Positions 810-8,250 are shown, counted from the stretch's first letter. The stretch: 64,000 bases of DNA from an uncultured Planctomycetia bacterium (GCA_964612035.1 CAZTBX010000099.1:3194-67193); one strand, 5' to 3'. Made by a program: numbers and translations. Notes: generated by a model not told the origin, from the letters alone.

Positions 810-2399
810 GTGATACGCCGCCTGAGGGATATCTCCCTTATCCTTTTTTCGGCGGCGCTTCTCGTGCTGCCTTACCATTTTCAATCCCTGGGCGTCCTGG
901 CGTTCGTCGGGTTCATCCCTTATTTTTTCTGCCTCCGTCACCAAACGCCTGGCGGTGCCTTCAAATATTCTTTCCTGCTGGGCTTCCTTTTTTTCGCCCT
1001 TCTCGGTTTCTGGCTCACGAACGTGAATGTCATCGGCTTCGTGCTGCTGTCGGCGTACCTGGCGTTGTTCTTCGCGTTTTTCGGATTTTACGCGGTGTCT
1101 TTCCTCAAAACCGAGACCGGTGGCGCGCGCGCGGCGCTGTACACGGCCGCTATCTGGACGGCGCTCGAGTTCGTTCGCGGCTGGATGATCAGCGGTTTCC
1201 CGTGGGCGCTTCTAGGCTACAGCCAGTGGAAGAATCTCGTTATCATCCAAATAGCCGATATCGTGGGACCTTACGGTGTTTCTTTTTTTGTGATGGCCGT
1301 GAATGTGGCGCTGTTCGAATTGATACGGACGGCGCTCGGTCCCAGGGCCGGCGCGATGGAGCCCGCAACACGGCTCAAAGTGCTGCGCGGCACGGCGCTG
1401 TTCCTTTTTGGGCTCTCGGCCTCGGTGCTCGGCTATGGCGCCTGGTCGCTATCCTCGCGGGACGCGCTTTCCCGCCCCGCCATGCCCAAAGCCGTTCTGC
1501 GCGTGTCCGTGGTGCAGGGCAACATCCCGCAGGAACAGAAGTGGAACGCCAAGATCAAAGAGATCATCTTCGAAAAATACAAACGGCTCACGCTGATGGC
1601 CGCGGGCGAGCGGCCGGACCTCATCGTGTGGCCAGAGACCTCTTTTCCGGGATATCTCGAGGACGAACCCATCCTGGCGGCAAAATTGCGCAACATGGTG
1701 CGGCAGGGGCGCACGGCGGTGCTCGTGGGCGCGCCGTCTATGGGAGACCTCGAAACAGGCGGTCTCAAATTTTTCAACAGCGCCATTCTCTACAACAAGA
1801 ACGGCGAGGAGGAAAAAAGGTACAGCAAGGTGCATCTGGTGCCTTTCGGCGAATACATCCCGTTCGAACCCCTTCTGGGGTTTCTCCGCCATTTTTTCCC
1901 CATCGGGCATTTCAACGCGGGAGAGGACAAAACCGTTTTCAAATTGAGGGGCGAGTCGCCGGGCAGAGTGTCGGCCGCGCGTTTTGGCGTGCTCATCTGC
2001 TATGAGGACATTTTCCCCGGACTCGTGCGCGCTCTCTGTCTGAACGGCGCGGATTTCCTCGTCAATATCACCAATGACGCCTGGTTCGGCAAGACCTCCG
2101 CACCTTATCAGCACGCGCAGGCGTCGGTGTTCCGCGCCGTGGAAAATCGCGTGCCCGTGGTTCGCTCGACAAACACGGGCCTATCCTGCTTCATCTCCGC
2201 CGAAGGCCGCATACTCTCCAGCGTCAGCGAAAAAGGGGAGGAGATCATGGTGGCCGGCTACAAAACCCAGGATCTCGTCCTGCGCCGCGTCCGCACTTTT
2301 TACACCCGCTTCGGGGATATTTTCATGCTCCTCGTCGCAGCCCTCCTCGTCCTCTCCTACAAAGAAAAGTCCGCTCGGGAACGATATACCCAGTTTTAA
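810..2399 (+). CDS. lnt: Apolipoprotein N-acyltransferase
   Basis: 529 aa with a multi-TM N-terminus and a C-terminal CN-hydrolase domain (motifs VVQGNIPQ, LIVWPE, FGVLICYE). Sits directly after secA. Confidence 0.85.
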   Translation: MIRRLRDISLILFSAALLVLPYHFQSLGVLAFVGFIPYFFCLRHQTPGGAFKYSFLLGFLFFALLGFWLTNVNVIGFVLLSAYLALFFAFFGFYAVSFLKTETGGARAALYTAAIWTALEFVRGWMISGFPWALLGYSQWKNLVIIQIADIVGPYGVSFFVMAVNVALFELIRTALGPRAGAMEPATRLKVLRGTALFLFGLSASVLGYGAWSLSSRDALSRPAMPKAVLRVSVVQGNIPQEQKWNAKIKEIIFEKYKRLTLMAAGERPDLIVWPETSFPGYLEDEPILAAKLRNMVRQGRTAVLVGAPSMGDLETGGLKFFNSAILYNKNGEEEKRYSKVHLVPFGEYIPFEPLLGFLRHFFPIGHFNAGEDKTVFKLRGESPGRVSAARFGVLICYEDIFPGLVRALCLNGADFLVNITNDAWFGKTSAPYQHAQASVFRAVENRVPVVRSTNTGLSCFISAEGRILSSVSEKGEEIMVAGYKTQDLVLRRVRTFYTRFGDIFMLLVAALLVLSYKEKSARERYTQF

Positions 2400-2436
2400 C
2401 CCAGCCTTGATTGGGGCCGGTAGGGCCTGTTCGCTA

Positions 2437-2499
2437 TCCGCCTCCAAAAAGATTTTTTGCACGGAAATGGCACCCTGTGTCGTCCTGTTAGGTGGGAGG
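2437..2499. repeat. Left terminal inverted repeat of the accessory island (core ~56 bp at 2444-2499)
   Basis: tccgcctCCAAAAAGATTTTTTGCACGGAAATGGCACCCTGTGTCGTCCTGTTAGGTGGGAGG is the reverse complement of 4675-4731 with about 7 mismatches in 56. Confidence 0.8.
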
Positions 2500-2529
2500 C
2501 AAGCCATGCAGGAAGGCGTCACAAGGCTA

Positions 2530-2566
2530 TTGAAATATGTATAATTATATGTATACTTATATGTAT
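2530..2566 (+). promoter_or_regulatory. Sigma70-like promoter for brnTA with overlapping ATATGTAT direct repeats (candidate operator)
   Basis: -35 TTGAAA at 2530-2535, a 16 nt spacer, and -10 TATACT at 2552-2557. ATATGTAT(A) recurs at 2535-2543, 2547-2555 and 2559-2566 with ~12 bp periodicity. Confidence 0.5.
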
Positions 2567-2580
2567 CGGGCGAGGCCCAC

Positions 2581-2859
2581 ATGGACGTAGAATATGGGGG
2601 TTTCGTCTGGGACGATAGAAAAGAAGCCGAGAATATCCTCAAGCATGATGTTGATTTTAAGTCCGCATGCAGGGCGTTTCTCGATCCGGATAGAAAGGTA
2701 TTTAGAGATTCAAAACACAGCCGCTATGAGACGAGAAAGTTTTGCATCGGAAAAGTGGACAACCAGATCATGACGGTCCGATTTATGGTGAGAGAGCATA
2801 AGATCCGTATCATCGGCGCCGGTTATTGGAGACAGGGGAGGGCCTACTACAATGAATAA
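2581..2859 (+). CDS. brnT: BrnT-family (DUF497) type II toxin
   Basis: 92 aa. The layout FVWDDRKEAENILKHDVDFKSACRAFLDP...IRIIGAGYW matches BrnT/DUF497. Its stop overlaps the brnA start. Confidence 0.75.
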   Translation: MDVEYGGFVWDDRKEAENILKHDVDFKSACRAFLDPDRKVFRDSKHSRYETRKFCIGKVDNQIMTVRFMVREHKIRIIGAGYWRQGRAYYNE

Positions 2860-3091
2860 AAAAGTTCATGACCCAAATATGCCTGTCGGCAAATTGACAA
2901 GGGTCGTCGATGACCTGCCGCCGCCAAGCGAGCTCGCAAAACCCTTGCAAGGTGTGCGCATCACCATCATTGTCAGCAAGTCCAGCGTGGAATACTTCAA
3001 AACGAACGCCCGCAAATATCACACGAAGTATCAACGCATGATGCGCGAGGTGCTGGACAGCTATGTCTCCCGCCAGGCAGTCGCGCACTAA
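2852..3091 (+). CDS. brnA: BrnA-family antitoxin (RHH/CopG-like)
   Basis: 79 aa. The C-terminal motif VRITIIVSKSSVEYFKTNARKYHTKYQRMMREVLDSYV matches the BrnA pattern (V.L.L..DV.EWFK...GYQTRIN..LR.YM). It overlaps brnT by 8 nt. Confidence 0.7.
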   Translation: MNKKVHDPNMPVGKLTRVVDDLPPPSELAKPLQGVRITIIVSKSSVEYFKTNARKYHTKYQRMMREVLDSYVSRQAVAH

Positions 3092-3181
3092 TAAACAGCC
3101 GGAGGTCCCGTTCGCCGTCACCCGTTCGCTAGCTTAGTCTAATGCCTCCCCACCGACTGCGTCCGGTATGCGCCCCTAATT

Positions 3182-3240
3182 TCCGCCTTATTTTAAAATA
3201 ATCTGCACGGAAAATGCCTGGTCCGTCGTCTTGTATAGCA
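3182..3240. repeat. Degenerate internal third copy of the island terminal repeat, in the same orientation as the left copy
   Basis: tccgccttattttaaaataatcTGCACGGAAAATGCCTGGTCCGTCGTCTTGTATAG aligns with 2437-2499. Shared blocks are tccgcct, TGCACGGAAA(A)TG and GTCGTC(C/T)TGT. Confidence 0.55.
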
Positions 3241-3261
3241 GAAACCGTAAAGTGAGAGGTC

Positions 3262-3290
3262 TTGAAAAAACAACTTATAGGTTGTATACT
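3262..3290 (+). promoter_or_regulatory. Sigma70-like promoter for the XRE regulator module
   Basis: -35 TTGAAA at 3262-3267, a 17 nt spacer, and -10 TATACT at 3285-3290. The hexamers and spacing match the brnTA promoter. Confidence 0.5.
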
Positions 3291-3301
3291 TTAGGAGCGG
3301 T

Positions 3302-3388
3302 ATGTATTCGGTCAGGTTCTTTAAAGAAGAGATCGCCACCGCTTTGAAGAGAAAACGGATATTTGAGGGGAGAAGTATCGATGAATAA
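3302..3388 (+). other. 28-codon upstream ORF (MYSVRFFKEEIATALKRKRIFEGRSIDE), possibly a decayed toxin remnant or a leader peptide
   Basis: ATG at 3302 lies downstream of the promoter. The TAA stop at 3386-3388 overlaps the ATG of the XRE gene at 3381. It sits where a HigB/RelE-like toxin usually precedes this antitoxin type. Confidence 0.25.
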
Positions 3389-3710
3389 ACACTTGGGTTC
3401 GGATCTCAAAGAGACCTATAAGAAATTTGCTAAGGCAAGCCCTAAAAATGCACTCGAAGCCCAAATTCTGACCGGTAAACTCGAAATGGCGAATTTACTG
3501 ATCTCTCAAAGGGAAGATCTCGGTCTCAGCCAGAAAAAATTGGCTGAAAAACTGGGTGTTAAGCAGCAGCTCATCAGCAAAATAGAAAGCGGCTCTAACA
3601 ATATTACACTCGATACGCTGATCCGAGTATTGACCGTTTTGGGGGTCGCTTTGAAGGTCGAGAGAGTTAAATTAGAGAGAGCTCAAAAGGTATTACAATT
3701 TGTAACATGA
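3381..3710 (+). CDS. XRE-family helix-turn-helix protein resembling HigA-type type II antitoxins; orphan, with no intact toxin
   Basis: HTH core LSQKKLAEKLGVKQQLISKIESGSNNITLDTLIRVLTVLG. The RBS gaggggag lies 8 nt before the ATG at 3381. The ORF track starts at 3363 using TTG. Confidence 0.7.
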   Translation: MNKHLGSDLKETYKKFAKASPKNALEAQILTGKLEMANLLISQREDLGLSQKKLAEKLGVKQQLISKIESGSNNITLDTLIRVLTVLGVALKVERVKLERAQKVLQFVT

Positions 3711-3728
3711 ATTGACCGTCCTCCGCCC

Positions 3729-3831
3729 ATAGAATGGTACCGTAGAATGGTACCGGGTACGGAGGGGACAGCTACCAGAGTGTAACGTGTCCCTTTGGTA
3801 AGCGGTACCGTTCTACGTTCTACGTTCTATG
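3729..3831. repeat. Iteron-like array of the GTAGAAYGGTACC motif plus three tandem GTTCTAC heptamers
   Basis: ATAGAATGGTACC at 3729-3741 and GTAGAATGGTACC at 3742-3754 lie in direct orientation. GGTACCGTTCTAC at 3804-3816 is the inverted form. GTTCTAC repeats at 3810-3816 and 3817-3823, followed by gttctat at 3824-3830. Confidence 0.7.
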
Positions 3832-4126
3832 ATCGACGCTCGCCACACGCCGGCTCTCCATTGATTGACTCGTTTTTGGATTAGAGTTAACCTCTTTCTT
3901 TAGGATGTTGTCCGATATATGTCATGTAAGCAAATAGCCTCGGAAAAATTAAGTTATGATTAGCGACGCTTTGTCTCTGATTGATTTTCTCAAAAAACAC
4001 TTGATGGAATACTCAGTTAAAAGTGCATTGTTTAACTCTGACGGTATCAGGATTGAAGGAGACAGTTTTATTGAAATAGATAAAATCCCAGTCCAGTGTA
4101 GAACGGTACCGCTTACCAAAGGGACA
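3788..4126. repeat. Perfect 29 bp inverted repeat pair (3788-3816 and 4098-4126) enclosing ~280 bp of AT-rich DNA
   Basis: TGTCCCTTTGGTAAGCGGTACCGTTCTAC at 3788-3816 is the exact reverse complement of GTAGAACGGTACCGCTTACCAAAGGGACA at 4098-4126. Confidence 0.85.
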
Positions 4127-4135
4127 GGTTGTTAG
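3956..4135 (+). CDS. Hypothetical 59 aa ORF (MISDALSLIDFLKKHLMEYSVKSALFNSDGIRIEGDSFIEIDKIPVQCRTVPLTKGTGC)
   Basis: Open frame from ATG 3956 to TAG 4133-4135. It is just under the 60 aa ORF-track threshold, has no clear RBS, runs through the right 29 bp IR, and overlaps the ORF6N stop by 4 nt. Confidence 0.2.
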   Translation: MISDALSLIDFLKKHLMEYSVKSALFNSDGIRIEGDSFIEIDKIPVQCRTVPLTKGTGC

Positions 4136-4668
4136 TATTTGACATGAAAACCGACCGGTTTTTTCGGCGTCGATTTTGGTGATTCGAGCAATTCCTTGAG
4201 AGCCTCAAAAACGACTTTGAATTGCTTATCGTGTTTTTCGTATTTCCTCTCCAGTTCCTCGATCTTCTGACGGACAAGCTCATTGGTAGCGACCATTTCG
4301 CGGAGTTTGATGAAAGCCCGCATGATCAGGATATTGGCCTGCACTGCCCGGGGACTGTTGAGTATCCCGGAAAGCATGGCTACTCCTTCCTGGGTGAAAG
4401 CGTAAGGTAGGTAACGCCGCCCTCCACGGCCTTTGTTTGAGGTTCCAAATTGGAACCTCAAAGATTCAGCCTCATCAGCCGTTAAACGAAACATAAAGTC
4501 TTCTGGAAATCGGCTTATGTTTCGCTGAACAGCTTTATTTAGATTTTTAGTTAGGACGCCATAGAGTTCCGCAAGCTCACGGTCCAACATGACCTTTTTA
4601 CTCCTAATAAAATAGATCCTCCGCTCGACTTGCTCGTGCGAAAGCATGATATTCCCGTGTTTTGTCAT
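4132..4668 (-). CDS. ORF6N/KilA-N domain DNA-binding protein with a C-terminal coiled coil
   Basis: 178 aa. The core VMLDRELAELYGVLTKNLNKAVQRNISRFPEDFMFRLT...GRGGRRYLPYAFTQEGVAMLSGILNS is typical ORF6N. An AGGAGG RBS 7 nt upstream lies inside the right terminal repeat. This is the only minus-strand gene in the window. Confidence 0.75.
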   Translation of the reverse strand: MTKHGNIMLSHEQVERRIYFIRSKKVMLDRELAELYGVLTKNLNKAVQRNISRFPEDFMFRLTADEAESLRFQFGTSNKGRGGRRYLPYAFTQEGVAMLSGILNSPRAVQANILIMRAFIKLREMVATNELVRQKIEELERKYEKHDKQFKVVFEALKELLESPKSTPKKPVGFHVKY

Positions 4669-4674
4669 GACACC

Positions 4675-4731
4675 CCTCCTTACCTAACAGGACGACGGAG
4701 GGGGTCATTTCCGTTCAAAAAATCTTTTTGG
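4675..4731. repeat. Right terminal inverted repeat of the accessory island
   Basis: CCTCCTTACCTAACAGGACGACGGAGGGGGTCATTTCCGTTCAAAAAATCTTTTTGG is the reverse complement of 2444-2499 at ~87% identity. It contains a CCCCTCC(17 nt)GGAGGGG hairpin and supplies the ORF6N RBS. Confidence 0.8.
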
Positions 4732-4776
4732 CCCGCTCGCCCCACAACGCTCGCCACCCGCCAGCCCCACAGCGGT

Positions 4777-4805
4777 TTGACAGCTCAAGCCCTAGTCGCT
4801 ATAAT
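4777..4805 (+). promoter_or_regulatory. Sigma70 consensus promoter upstream of lysS
   Basis: -35 TTGACA at 4777-4782, a 17 nt spacer, and -10 TATAAT at 4800-4805. Confidence 0.6.
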
Positions 4806-4852
4806 AATTTCCATAAATTTAAGTAAGCAAAGAAGTTGCGAAAGGAACGGGC

Positions 4853-6304
4853 TTGAAAGAAGAAAACGAGCTTGTTAAAGAACGCTTTAAAAAGTTAGAG
4901 CAGATAAAGGCCATGAATATAGACCCTTTCGGGGGAAAATTCCCGAAGCAGGGGCCTATTTCTGAGCTTCCCAAGCTTGTGGAAGGCAGTCGCGTGGCCT
5001 CAGCCGGCCGCCTCTCGGCCATGCGTGTCATGGGCAAGTCCGTGTTCTGCGACCTGAAAGATGAAAGCGGCCGCATCCAGCTTTATATCAAGCACGAGAA
5101 TCTCGGCGACGCGCAATTCTTGCTTTTTGAGCGCCTCGACATCGGTGACATCATCGGCGTCGAGGGCGAGCTTTTCAAGACCAAGACCGGCGAGATCTCC
5201 ATCCGCGTCGAAAAACTTTCACTGCTTGCAAAAAGCCTGAGGCCTTTGCCGGAAAAATGGCATGGCCTGAAAGACGTCGAGGCGCGCTACCGCCAGAGAT
5301 ACCTCGACCTCATTTCCAACGACGAGACAAAGGACATTTTCCGCAAGCGTTCGATGATCATCCGTGAGATACGCCGCGTGCTCGATGACAAAGGCTATCT
5401 CGAAGTCGAGACGCCCATGATGCATCCCATCCCCGGCGGGGCGGCGGGGAAACCGTTCAAAACGCATCACGAGGCGCTGGACCTGGACCTTTTTCTACGC
5501 ATCGCGCCGGAACTTTACCTGAAAAAGCTTTTGGTCGGCGGTTTCGACAAGGTGTATGAGATCAACAAGAGTTTCCGCAACGAGGGCATCTCCACGCGGC
5601 ACAATCCCGAATTCACCATGCTCGAGGTGTACACGGCGTATCAGGACTGCGAGGACGTCATGCAGCTCACCGAGGACATCGTGAAGCATGCCGCGCAAAG
5701 CGTGTTTGGCACGCTGACGCTTGAGCAGGGCGGCCGCGTGCTCGACCTCTCCAAATGGGAACGCGTGTCTTTCGCGGCGCTCATGAAAGATTCTTTCGGC
5801 ATCCTGCCCGATGACGATATCGCCTCGTGGCCGGACAAGCTGCGCAAAAAGGGCGTGAAGATAGAAAAAAAGGACCTGTCGAGGACTCAGCTCATCAACA
5901 TCATCGCGGACCTGCTCGAGCCCGGCAAAACGGACGCTCACCAGACGCTGAAGCCCATGTTCGTCACGGATTATTTTTCAGAACTTTCGCCGCTGGCGCG
6001 CCGCAACAAGAAGCACCCCGAGCTCAGCGAGCGTTTCGAACTTTATTTTGGCGGCATCGAGATCGCCAACGGCTATTCCGAGCAGAACGATCCCATCGAG
6101 CAGCGTGAACGCCTCGAAGAGGAGATGAGGGAAAAAGGAAAAGGCGCGGGAGAGCTGGACGAAGATTTTCTGACGGCACTCGAGCACGGCATGCCTCCGG
6201 CCGGCGGCCTCGGCATCGGCATCGACCGTCTCGTGATGCTGCTCACCAATCAGCCCTCCATCCGCGAGGTGATCTTATTTCCCCAAATGAAAAAAGAGAG
6301 TTAA
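4853..6304 (+). CDS. lysS: Lysine--tRNA ligase (class II)
   Basis: 483 aa with an N-terminal anticodon-binding OB fold and class II motifs (FRNEGIS, PPAGGLGIGIDRLVM). Confidence 0.9.
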   Translation: MKEENELVKERFKKLEQIKAMNIDPFGGKFPKQGPISELPKLVEGSRVASAGRLSAMRVMGKSVFCDLKDESGRIQLYIKHENLGDAQFLLFERLDIGDIIGVEGELFKTKTGEISIRVEKLSLLAKSLRPLPEKWHGLKDVEARYRQRYLDLISNDETKDIFRKRSMIIREIRRVLDDKGYLEVETPMMHPIPGGAAGKPFKTHHEALDLDLFLRIAPELYLKKLLVGGFDKVYEINKSFRNEGISTRHNPEFTMLEVYTAYQDCEDVMQLTEDIVKHAAQSVFGTLTLEQGGRVLDLSKWERVSFAALMKDSFGILPDDDIASWPDKLRKKGVKIEKKDLSRTQLINIIADLLEPGKTDAHQTLKPMFVTDYFSELSPLARRNKKHPELSERFELYFGGIEIANGYSEQNDPIEQRERLEEEMREKGKGAGELDEDFLTALEHGMPPAGGLGIGIDRLVMLLTNQPSIREVILFPQMKKES

Positions 6305-6334
6305 ACGATGGAAACCGAAAACCCATTCTCGTTA

Positions 6335-6397
6335 ACCAATGAGGCGCACCAGGTACCAGAGCACCAGTCACCAGTAGGTTCTGGTGCTCCATTGGTC
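6335..6397 (+). terminator. Hairpin downstream of lysS (possible terminator; no clear U-tract)
   Basis: GAGCACCAG at 6359-6367 pairs with CTGGTGCTC at 6381-6389 around a 13 nt loop. The stem is extended by ACCAATG and CATTGGT. Confidence 0.3.
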
Positions 6398-6399
6398 TC

Positions 6400-7573
6400 A
6401 TGAACTTTCACTGGTTCATTGCCAAACGCTATCTCTGGTCCAAGAGGCGCCATCCGTTCGTCGGAGTGGTGAGCACGATCTCGGCGCTGGGCATTTGCGT
6501 CGGCGTCGCCGCGCTCATCGTGGTGCTCGCCGTGATGAACGGGTTTGACGAAGACCTGAAAGAAAGGGTGATCGGCCTCCGTTCGCATCTCATCGTCGAA
6601 AAGGACGGCGCCTTCACTGACTCCGAGGCCGTCATGCAGCGCGTTCGCGCCGTGAAAGGCGTGGCGGGAACTTCCCCGTACGTGGAGGGCCAGGCGTTGG
6701 TGCAGGTCGGTGAGTGGGGCAGTGGCGTTCTCGTGCGCGGCATAGACCCGCGCCGGGAAAAGAAAGTGTCCAAATTTTTCCAGTATCTGACCGAGGGCAC
6801 GCTCAGCGATTCGCCGAGCGGCGTCGTCGTCGGCTCCGAACTTGCCAAGCGCGCCCATATCAGCCGCGGCTCCAACCTTCTCATCGCCACGCAGAACACC
6901 GAGAAACCGATGCGTCTCACCGTTGAGGGGATATTTTCTTCGGGGATGTACGAATACGACGCGAACCTCGTTTTTCTGAATTTGAAGAATGCGCAGGCGC
7001 TTTTCGGCCTCGACAATGGTGTCAGCGGCGTCTCGGTGTACCTGAAAAAAGCCGAGCTTGCCGATCAGGCGAAAAGATCCATGCGAAACATGCTGCCGTC
7101 GGCGTTCTTCATCCGCACCTGGATGGACATGAACCGCACGCTTTTTTCGGCGCTGAAACTGGAGAAGATCGTGATGTTCCTGATCCTGACGCTGATCATT
7201 TTCGTGGCGTGCCTCAACATCGCGGGCAGTCTCACCATCCTCGTGATGGACAAGACCAAGGACATCGGCGTATTGAAAGCGCTGGGGGCGGCACCGTATT
7301 CGCTGGTGAAGATATTTGCGCTCGACGGCCTCATCCTCGGTCTCGTGGGCTCCGGCGCGGGTTTTCTGATCGGGACCGGGCTGTGCGCGCTGCTCAGCCA
7401 GCATTCTTTCGTCGAGCTTCCTAAAGAAATTTACTACATCGACCGTCTGCCGGTGCAGGTGAACGCCAAGGATACGGCGATAGTGCTGATCGTGGCCATT
7501 TTTCTGAGTTTTTTGTCGGCTTTATACCCGGCCACGCGCGCGGGGCGGCTGGATCCCGTAAAGGCTCTCCGCT

Positions 7574-7581
<8 letters not shown>
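6400..7581 (+). CDS. lolC: Lipoprotein-releasing system permease (LolC/LolE, FtsX-like)
   Basis: 393 aa with an N-terminal TM segment, a periplasmic MacB-like domain and a C-terminal FtsX 3-TM domain. It is followed by lolD. Confidence 0.8.

Positions 7582-8250
<669 letters not shown>

Follow-up and report, generated by a model that had tools for sequence, protein, structure and literature searches.

Comparative genomics knows propagated, or 'mobile', promoters, which are near-identical promoter segments found ahead of unrelated genes. Another kind of recurrent short sequence, the attC site, has an inverse core (RYYYAAC) and a core (GTTRRRY) that are paired via an imperfect internal palindrome. 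Sigma factors of the extracytoplasmic function (ECF, group IV) type are usually autoregulated. Their promoters, for example those of sigma-W, X, M, V and Y of Bacillus subtilis, have as hallmarks AAC at -35 and CGT at -10, with a homopolymeric tract adjoining the -35 box, and their spacer range is quoted as 14-17 bp (PMC5758882). The present report concerns a small AT-rich islet between lnt and lysS in a stretch of 64,000 nucleotides from an uncultured Planctomycetia bacterium (GCA_964612035.1, CAZTBX010000099.1:3194-67193; hereafter the window), and the inverted repeat that faces inward from both of its ends. An earlier note on this DNA had proposed a non-autonomous element bounded by terminal inverted repeats (TIRs) or recombination between copies of an intergenic repeat family. 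We arrive at another reading, which we consider quite probable: the arms are facing copies of a promoter-like module that heads each unit of a mosaic toxin-antitoxin (TA) and defence islet in an insertion spot, and they do not delimit a transposon.

The inverted repeat and its family

The inverted repeat is real. Its arms (2444-2493 and 4682-4731) are 50 nt long, 90% complementary and 2188 nt apart, and extension to 56 nt adds one indel and two mismatches, giving about seven differences overall, the number counted in the earlier note. The left arm begins 45 nt past the lnt stop codon (2399), the right arm ends 46 nt before the -35 box of lysS, and no further copy of the full arm occurs anywhere in the 64-kb window. 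Overlooked until now were the translation signals into which both arms lead, as were a third, internal copy of the repeat and a second, unrelated inverted-repeat family. Read inward, the right arm continues as ...TGTTAGGTAAGGAGGGGTGTC-ATG, the start of an ORF6N gene at 4668, and the left arm as ...TGTTAGGTGGGAGGCAAGCC-ATG, which opens a 12-codon stub, the Shine-Dalgarno (SD) sequence and the ATG lying at an equal distance past both arms. ORF6N homologues on unrelated contigs have the same upstream sequence in the same register, as seen in loci L008, L017, L021, L024 and L032.

From the upstream regions of these homologues we derived a 35-nt search pattern, TGMACGRAAA-N11-GTCGTC-N-TGTWWRG, for which we calculate about 0.5 exact matches by chance in 1.2e12 positions of genome contigs. 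The scan returned 15 matches at 12 genome loci and 16 matches at 15 metagenome loci, and none in viral contigs; a match within a coding sequence (L009) is probably due to chance and was excluded. The resulting non-redundant set numbers 27 instances, with 24 distinct ones outside the window, from metagenome-assembled genomes (MAGs) of uncultured bacteria and from metagenomes, and three inside it: the left arm (copy L), the right arm (R) and the internal copy (M). An nhmmer profile built from the 24 non-window instances recovers only M (E 9e-12), R (7e-11) and L (2e-10) in the 64 kb, the next-best match having an E-value of 0.06. All 27 instances align without any indel and their spacing is rigid. 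Over about 55 nt, the module comprises an AT-rich tract, a 10-nt block (TGAACGAAAA; consensus TG(A/C)ACG(A/G)AAA), 11 variable nucleotides ending in TCY, and a 13-nt block (GTCGTCtTGTATaG; consensus GTCGTC-N-TGTWWRG) that includes TGTATAG in most members. Its carriers are labelled as several different phyla, going by the MAG labels.

Wherever a non-window instance has sequence downstream (23 of 23), a co-oriented gene follows 8-182 nt after the motif, often past an AGGAGG box. By Pfam, the genes outside the window encode SpoVG (about ten distinct sites) and ORF6N proteins (seven), with BrnT, a ribbon-helix-helix antitoxin, a RelE-like toxin, a BrnA-like antitoxin, RecA, TspO and a 23S-rRNA intervening-sequence protein (23S_rRNA_IVP) as further cases. 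The recA gene with its module is on a 143-kb contig, and spoVG, followed by a YraN-like gene, is on a 157-kb contig in an ordinary chromosomal setting; the order module, spoVG, YraN-like gene can be read in the sequence of L020. An IS200-like Y1 transposase gene (Y1_Tnp; L011/L016/L013) lies downstream at two distinct sites, one represented on two contigs of a single MAG and the other a frameshifted pseudogene. It is the sole transposase gene among the 27 motif-retrieved loci, and the module stands on one side of it only. The MAG GCA_001804125.1, whose Lnt is 59% identical to that of the window, has the module before spoVG (L014) and an empty lnt-lysS gap (L039). Since the module is present there despite the empty gap, it belongs to the regulatory vocabulary of the host lineage and is not the end of a transposon.

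These placements speak against the TIR reading, in which the segment would resemble a miniature inverted-repeat transposable element (MITE) with cargo, mobilised in trans, and the 50-nt arms would be transposase binding sites. The locus does share with MITEs and other non-autonomous TIR elements two inverted 50-nt repeats, real and 90% matched, at about 45 nt from both limits of a transposase-less segment that is foreign and absent from relatives, and inverted modules also bracket a convergent ORF6N/brnTA pair in L008. Elsewhere, however, the repeat is solitary and always co-oriented with the gene behind it, before spoVG, recA and others at 24 further sites; the islet holds a third copy inside; and the inward genes have their ribosome-binding site and start codon within the arms. 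No target-site duplication abuts the arms, in agreement with the earlier note: 582 of 2000 shuffles score as well as the best flank similarity, 10/12. As this similarity is not significant, the idea of a lysS promoter duplicated at the left flank was rejected too. The pattern is unmatched in viral contigs, and Y1_Tnp (L016), the only transposase gene seen with the module, has it one-sided and comes from a family that uses hairpin ends, not TIRs. The motif-retrieved loci contain neither a second L...R unit nor an autonomous element flanked by the module on both sides. A TIR-bounded element is thereby largely refuted, and we rate it as highly improbable; the repeats taken for transposon ends are copies of a module that lies upstream of genes, and the islet has three such copies, one per transcription unit.

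The resemblance of L and R to TIRs has a simpler source. The ORF6N unit runs leftwards, on the strand opposite to that of the rightward brnTA unit, so the modules that head the two, the first and last of the islet, are inverted relative to each other and mimic terminal inverted repeats at its ends. Pairwise identity across the family averages 69% over the arm-equivalent 50 nt, and any two convergent members will therefore resemble an imperfect TIR. Hence a caution for annotation: two convergent genes that share a strongly conserved promoter type yield a convincing "TIR pair", and inverted repeats around accessory DNA should be checked for solitary copies before a transposon is called.

The likeness of this particular pair goes further. 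L and R are mutual closest relatives, and their identity of 90% (81% at family-variable columns) places them in the top 2 of 351 family pairs; the pair L012/L033, from unrelated samples, is as similar. Position 7 is G in L, R and M. The closeness suggests that the two came from one donor, arose by duplication or were homogenised in this genome, and the sequence in which the parts of the islet were acquired is something that we likewise infer. Outside the window, L029 carries two identical modules 1299 nt apart on a 1.4-kb contig (19-53 and 1318-1352, minus strand). The first is followed by a gene for a 23S-rRNA intervening-sequence four-helix-bundle protein, and the second ends after 18 identical bases; either the unit is duplicated in tandem here or the assembly has wrapped around a unit that repeats.

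Promoter-like features of the module

When scanned for sigma-70 promoters, brnT, the XRE unit and lysS each prove to have a canonical one, and there is no sigma-70-like promoter upstream of the ORF6N start. As the SD sequence comes only a few nucleotides after TGTATAG, transcription should start at or before this box, which would place GTCGTC at about -10 and TGAAC at about -35. With high confidence, therefore, we take the module to be promoter or regulatory DNA, judging from its sequence and placement. The assignment to the ECF type is more tentative, being possible and not yet probable in our estimation. The module would work as DNA, as a promoter that probably depends on an alternative sigma factor and probably includes a site for a regulator, and transcription starting near the TGTATAG box would give a short leader carrying the SD sequence. 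In TA units the module lies upstream of the unit's own autoregulated sigma-70-type promoter, which would give them two tandem promoters; a second, canonical promoter follows the module in L, M, L008, L010, L012 and L030. The layout of L012 is like that of L, with the module, an SD-ATG and a 36-codon stub ahead of a RelE-like TA unit.

The ECF assignment draws on several likenesses to the promoters listed above: a TGAAC box containing AAC and followed by a homopolymeric A/T tract, a CGTC box some two turns of the helix further on, spacing that is rigid, only a short leader before the SD sequence, and stress-type genes downstream (recA, spoVG and TA genes). The pattern itself fixes TG(A/C)AC and GTCGTC, which therefore do not vary among its matches; both boxes also occur in the weaker profile matches L030:4033 and L015:1608. 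A sigma-70 promoter within the arm was rejected, for TTGAAC and TATAGT are 23-25 nt apart, a start past TATAGT would lose the SD sequence, and the scan finds no such promoter; a sigma-54 reading was rejected as its defining boxes are absent.

Several points weigh against a promoter-like module of this kind as the full account of the locus. AAC and CGT lie 18 nt apart, and counting only to the first GTC gives 16 nt, which is at or beyond the 14-17 bp of ECF promoters. None of the 27 sites precedes a sigma-factor or anti-sigma gene, in a strict-pattern search that may miss weaker copies. The conserved blocks, of 10 and 13 nt, are longer than those of ECF promoters and exceed typical sigma contacts, and a bound regulator may be involved also or instead. 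The identity between L and R needs an explanation beyond family conservation, and the second canonical promoter after six modules could instead reflect a tendency of TA cassettes to be inserted right behind modules. Finally, promoter activity, the start site and the type of sigma factor are what we infer from the arrangement of boxes and start codons.

The module has something in common with mobile promoters, as it recurs before non-homologous genes, both in three copies within 2.3 kb and across genomes, and travels with an IS200-like gene. It differs in being conserved across differently labelled phyla and in standing also before housekeeping genes, and in this it resembles a regulon signal more than it does a repeat that has spread recently. 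Repetitive extragenic palindromes and their composites (REP/BIME/REPIN) are likewise short intergenic repeat families, and one copy of the module adjoins a Y1 (IS200/RAYT-like) gene. The module, in contrast, is non-palindromic, is kept across distant genomes instead of being species-specific, always points towards a gene start, and has only three copies in 64 kb, all in the islet. It failed the hairpin-palindrome test, the consensus fold having 4 pairs at -0.57 kcal/mol, and this reading was rejected. The earlier suggestion of an intergenic repeat family thus stands in so far as the repeats do form a family; that family is in all likelihood regulatory and unlike REP/BIME, and recombination between its copies is hypothetical.

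A structured RNA leader, either riboswitch-like or a hairpin sequestering the SD sequence, would also explain why the module often lies directly 5' of an SD-ATG, and in R, CCCCCTCC can pair with the SD sequence GGAGGGG, and ACGGA with TCCGT. RNAalifold on the 27 instances nevertheless gives only -0.57 kcal/mol and four invariant pairs, with no covariation; position 7 (A) is mostly opposite C, and the C-run becomes a G-run in several members without a compensating change. The ACGGA/TCCGT hairpin was tried and dropped, the seeming covariation between R and L003 being gone with 27 instances. Rfam has no match in 2300-4950 at E up to 10, nor in 18 loci at gathering score. An RNA element would moreover leave ORF6N without any promoter. 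Given four invariant pairs, no covariation and no Rfam match, we regard such an element as very unlikely indeed.

The promoter-like module is apparently an undescribed motif of a conventional kind: a limited literature search (ORF6N upstream motifs, Omnitrophota promoters) gave no prior description, and it has no Rfam family. Omnitrophota and comparable uncultured bacteria thus have in it a promoter-like motif that is conserved, tying spoVG and recA to TA genes, the ORF6N/PDC-S05 candidate defence family and an IS200-like transposase. If an alternative-sigma regulon is indeed behind it, the module offers a way to test how stress controls accessory genes in a phylum for which genetics hardly exists.

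Two side observations concern sequences around and within the module. At about 50-100 nt upstream of several modules (L012, about 160-270; L015, L016, L017) there is a near-palindromic box, (C)CGGACGACGTCC(C), the right half of which equals the module's CGTCGTCC. In L012 the box is within a 22-nt unit present in two tandem copies, then GTTAGSCGATAGC-CAAAAT. The box is possibly an operator for a dimeric regulator. Furthermore, some ORF6N proteins in databases, such as P0004 (196 aa) and P0023 (230 aa), have N-terminal extensions that equal the translated module, for example MNENKGVRRLVWLRRTAM..., while CKKMGPSVVLLN matches window 2458-2493; these extensions are start-codon mis-calls due to ATG or TG(A/C)AC in the module.

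The lnt-lysS junction and the content of the islet

The islet is foreign in composition, and the AT-richness described in the earlier note is real. Its GC content is 0.468 (2400-4776) vs 0.579 in the remaining window, and the minimum among 286 equal-sized windows outside it is 0.549. At third codon positions (GC3), the islet genes range from 0.40 to 0.68, and lnt, lysS and lolC from 0.73 to 0.77; the differing GC3 of the units suggests a mosaic origin. The gene content that the note had listed (brnT/brnA, an orphan XRE gene and a minus-strand ORF6N gene) was recovered with Pfam, weakly for BrnA. The absence of mobility genes was borne out too, with no transposase or integrase domain in the islet open reading frames (ORFs) in Pfam, PADLOC and NCBIfam, and no tRNA in the window (Table 1). 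A contig of an independent assembly of the same organism (Logan L001, ERR4904393) is identical to window 4101-7876, over 3.8 kb; an exact-sequence look-up of the window ORF6N and Lnt gave no record.

Table 1. Position and description of features in and beside the islet
Feature	Position	Strand	Description
lnt (apolipoprotein N-acyltransferase)	810..2399	+	Left flank; Pfam LNT_N + CN_hydrolase; secA-lnt-lysS synteny kept in relatives
Module copy L (left arm)	2443..2497	+	Reads rightwards; TGCACGGAAA-N11-GTCGTC-C-TGTTAGG, then GGGAGG-N6-ATG
12-codon stub ORF	2506..2544	+	At the usual start position of module-driven genes; by sequence inspection
Sigma-70-like promoter of brnTA	2530..2557	+	TTGAAA-16-TATACT, 10/12; ATATGTATA operator-like repeats
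brnT toxin	2581..2859	+	Pfam BrnT_toxin, 69 bits
brnA antitoxin	2852..3091	+	8-nt overlap with brnT; Pfam BrnA 18.7 bits, under the cut-off of 26.1
Module copy M	3186..3243	+	Ahead of XRE unit; more diverged than the arms; exact match to the 35-nt pattern; 70% inverted repeat with R
Sigma-70-like promoter of XRE unit	3262..3290	+	TTGAAA-17-TATACT; palindrome CAACTTATAGGTTG
28-codon ORF	3302..3388	+	Overlaps XRE start; no Pfam match
XRE/HTH_3 antitoxin-like gene (HipB/HigA-like)	3381..3710	+	Pfam HTH_3, 58 bits
Hairpin and short-repeat block	3729..3817		30-nt arms 3741-3770 / 3788-3817; flanking GTAGAAYGGTACC and GTTCTAC repeats
59-codon ORF of doubtful reality	3956..4135	+	Between inverted-repeat copies; GC3 0.40
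Third copy of second inverted-repeat family	4098..4130	+	97% complementary to 3784-3816; abuts ORF6N stop codon
ORF6N-domain gene, candidate defence family PDC-S05	4132..4668	-	Pfam ORF6N, 112 bits
Perfect 15+1+15 palindrome within ORF6N coding sequence	4434..4464
Module copy R (right arm)	4678..4731	-	Putative ORF6N promoter region; leftwards into AAGGAGGGG-N5-ATG
lysS promoter, right limit of inserted DNA	4777..4805	+	TTGACA-17-TATAAT, 12/12
lysS	4853..6304	+	Right flank; Pfam tRNA-synt_2, 302 bits; identical copy on Logan contig L001

Comparison of the junction with that of relatives, as the earlier note had advised, revealed both empty and differently filled sites. The Lnt homologues at about 60% identity are from Omnitrophota MAGs. 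Among them, the order secA-lnt-lysS-lolC is found with a gap of 90-150 bp that holds only the conserved lysS promoter, which follows lnt directly (L034/35, L038/39). In L036/37 the gap contains relB-yafQ. L040 (6560-8200) has a 1.5-kb insertion with a 108-aa ORF and an HTH_28/29/32 transposase-like protein, flanked by a 16-bp direct repeat, AATTCGAGTTTCATAT, and L041 is rearranged. L039 and L040 encode identical Lnt, and the gap is empty in the former and filled in the latter; the identity places them in the same species, and the two thus form a true empty/filled polymorphism at one spot. It follows from the varied states that DNA has landed repeatedly between the lnt stop codon and the lysS -35 box, and that the content found in the window is lineage-specific. 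These relatives are too distant to place the limits of the insertion at nucleotide level. The junction is documented here as a recurrent insertion spot, with an empty/filled polymorphism within one species.

The locus is an ordinary small mosaic TA/defence islet in an insertion hotspot. It shares with other such islets in chromosomal hotspots a variable gap content (empty, relB-yafQ, an insertion sequence, or brnTA with XRE and ORF6N), a foreign GC content, and TA genes beside a PDC-S05 candidate, and there is no essential difference between them. It is made up of brnTA, an orphan XRE antitoxin whose toxin may have decayed, a spacer rich in hairpins, and the ORF6N/PDC-S05 candidate defence gene.

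BrnT and BrnA qualify as a type II TA pair by their canonical order and 8-nt overlap, the BrnA score being below its cut-off. BrnT is 53% identical to the BrnT of L008, the gene of which also has a module upstream, and BrnA is 57% identical to the product of the gene after brnT in L008. The ATATGTATA repeats of the brnT promoter (window 2528-2570; L008 4640-4680, minus strand) are conserved despite this modest protein identity and are probably the BrnA operator. The order of module, ATATGTATA-operator promoter and brnT is the same in both loci at only 53-57% protein identity, which argues that the module is a long-standing part of the brnTA unit and not debris. As for the XRE protein, NCBIfam models of Y4mF/HipB/HigA antitoxins match below their cut-offs, and the 28-codon ORF before the gene is possibly the remnant of a toxin gene.

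The ORF6N gene, its palindrome and cassette exchange

The ORF6N protein matches PADLOC PDC-S05 at 195 bits and full length (residues 6-174 on positions 4-175 of 177). PDC-S05 is a candidate defence family, and the defence role is accordingly putative. There are more than 8000 ORF6N homologues, and the closest one on a long contig (L008) adjoins an Eco47II/Dcm/Vsr restriction-modification system. A perfect palindrome of 27-31 nt (arms of 13-15 nt, 1-nt loop) is present within the ORF6N coding sequences of the window, L006, L008 (three genes), L017, L024 and L032. It lies at the peptide LRFQFGTS or LKSQIVIS, in two sequence types with compensatory changes on both arms. Of 5000 synonymous recodings, at most 1 yields arms as long as those observed, and we conclude that the palindrome is selected at the nucleotide level. 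No literature on ORF6N palindromes was found.

Right after the stop codon of intact ORF6N genes there is, in L008 and L032, a mid-gene ORF6N fragment that bears the palindrome (for example DLISQFGTSS and a stop, SLRSQIVTSNWG and MVILRCQFATSNKGRG). Such fragments lie at 2248-2290, 3248-3290, 4008-4040 and 4775-4810 in L008, and at 7795-8145 (minus strand) in L032. Their position suggests that in tandem ORF6N arrays the palindrome is a site at which genes recombine or are replaced. No palindrome-bearing fragment is detectable in the islet of the window. Candidate ORF6N pseudogene fragments there (the XRE 3' end TTACAATTTGTAA, the second repeat family and the 59-codon ORF) were rejected, as no tblastn match to any of 120 homologues fell below E 0.009 and a search by profile was empty.

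These arrays bear on another possibility, namely that the module is the 5' boundary or recombination site of exchangeable 'promoter-first' cassettes (ORF6N, TA units, IS200-like genes), shuffled from genome to genome by some enzyme, with the islet as a small cassette array. It would fit the six independent TA units that have the module just upstream of their own full promoter, two of them after a short stub ORF, and the presence of the module on all three islet units with no copy in the 61 kb of flanking chromosome. ORF6N genes, furthermore, often come from contigs of about 1 kb and often stand in tandem, each stop codon being followed by gene fragments, and GC3 varies among the units (0.40-0.68). 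On the other side, the module also stands before single-copy housekeeping genes (spoVG, recA) in ordinary chromosomal context, it has no associated recombinase, its units have no common 3' boundary, and the relB-yafQ and insertion-sequence insertions in the same lnt-lysS gap are without it. Nor is there attC-like symmetry, with only four invariant pairs by RNAalifold. We consider this possibility unlikely.

The islet does resemble integron cassette arrays, or clusters of attC sites lacking integron-integrases (CALIN), in having a few small genes in a row, TA genes and unknown ones, that are richer in AT than the host, with a related repeat between units. It differs in that the repeat is 5' of each gene and carries promoter-like boxes, has no R''/L''-L'/R' symmetry, and occurs on both strands, and in that there is no integrase. 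An integron attC site was rejected: GTTAGGT is present in L and R, with TGTATAG in most members, and has no complementary RYYYAAC partner. A broader version, in which the module, the nucleotide-selected ORF6N palindrome and the palindrome-bearing fragments mark an undescribed cassette-exchange system that swaps promoter-first units between genomes and into hotspots such as lnt/lysS, with L...R as one transferable block, is likewise improbable in our judgement.

The second inverted-repeat family is unrelated to the arms and has copies at 3741-3770 (+), 3788-3817 (-) and 4098-4130 (+). Within the window its copies are confined to the islet, and it has no match in the other loci. The third copy and its partner at 3784-3816 enclose 281 nt with the doubtful 59-codon ORF, which has no match in Pfam, PADLOC or NCBIfam. 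The hairpin formed by the first two copies has a DNA fold of -25 kcal/mol (z -3.3). Contig L001 breaks at 4101, inside the third copy, presumably owing to a de Bruijn graph tangle from the 33-nt inverted repeat.

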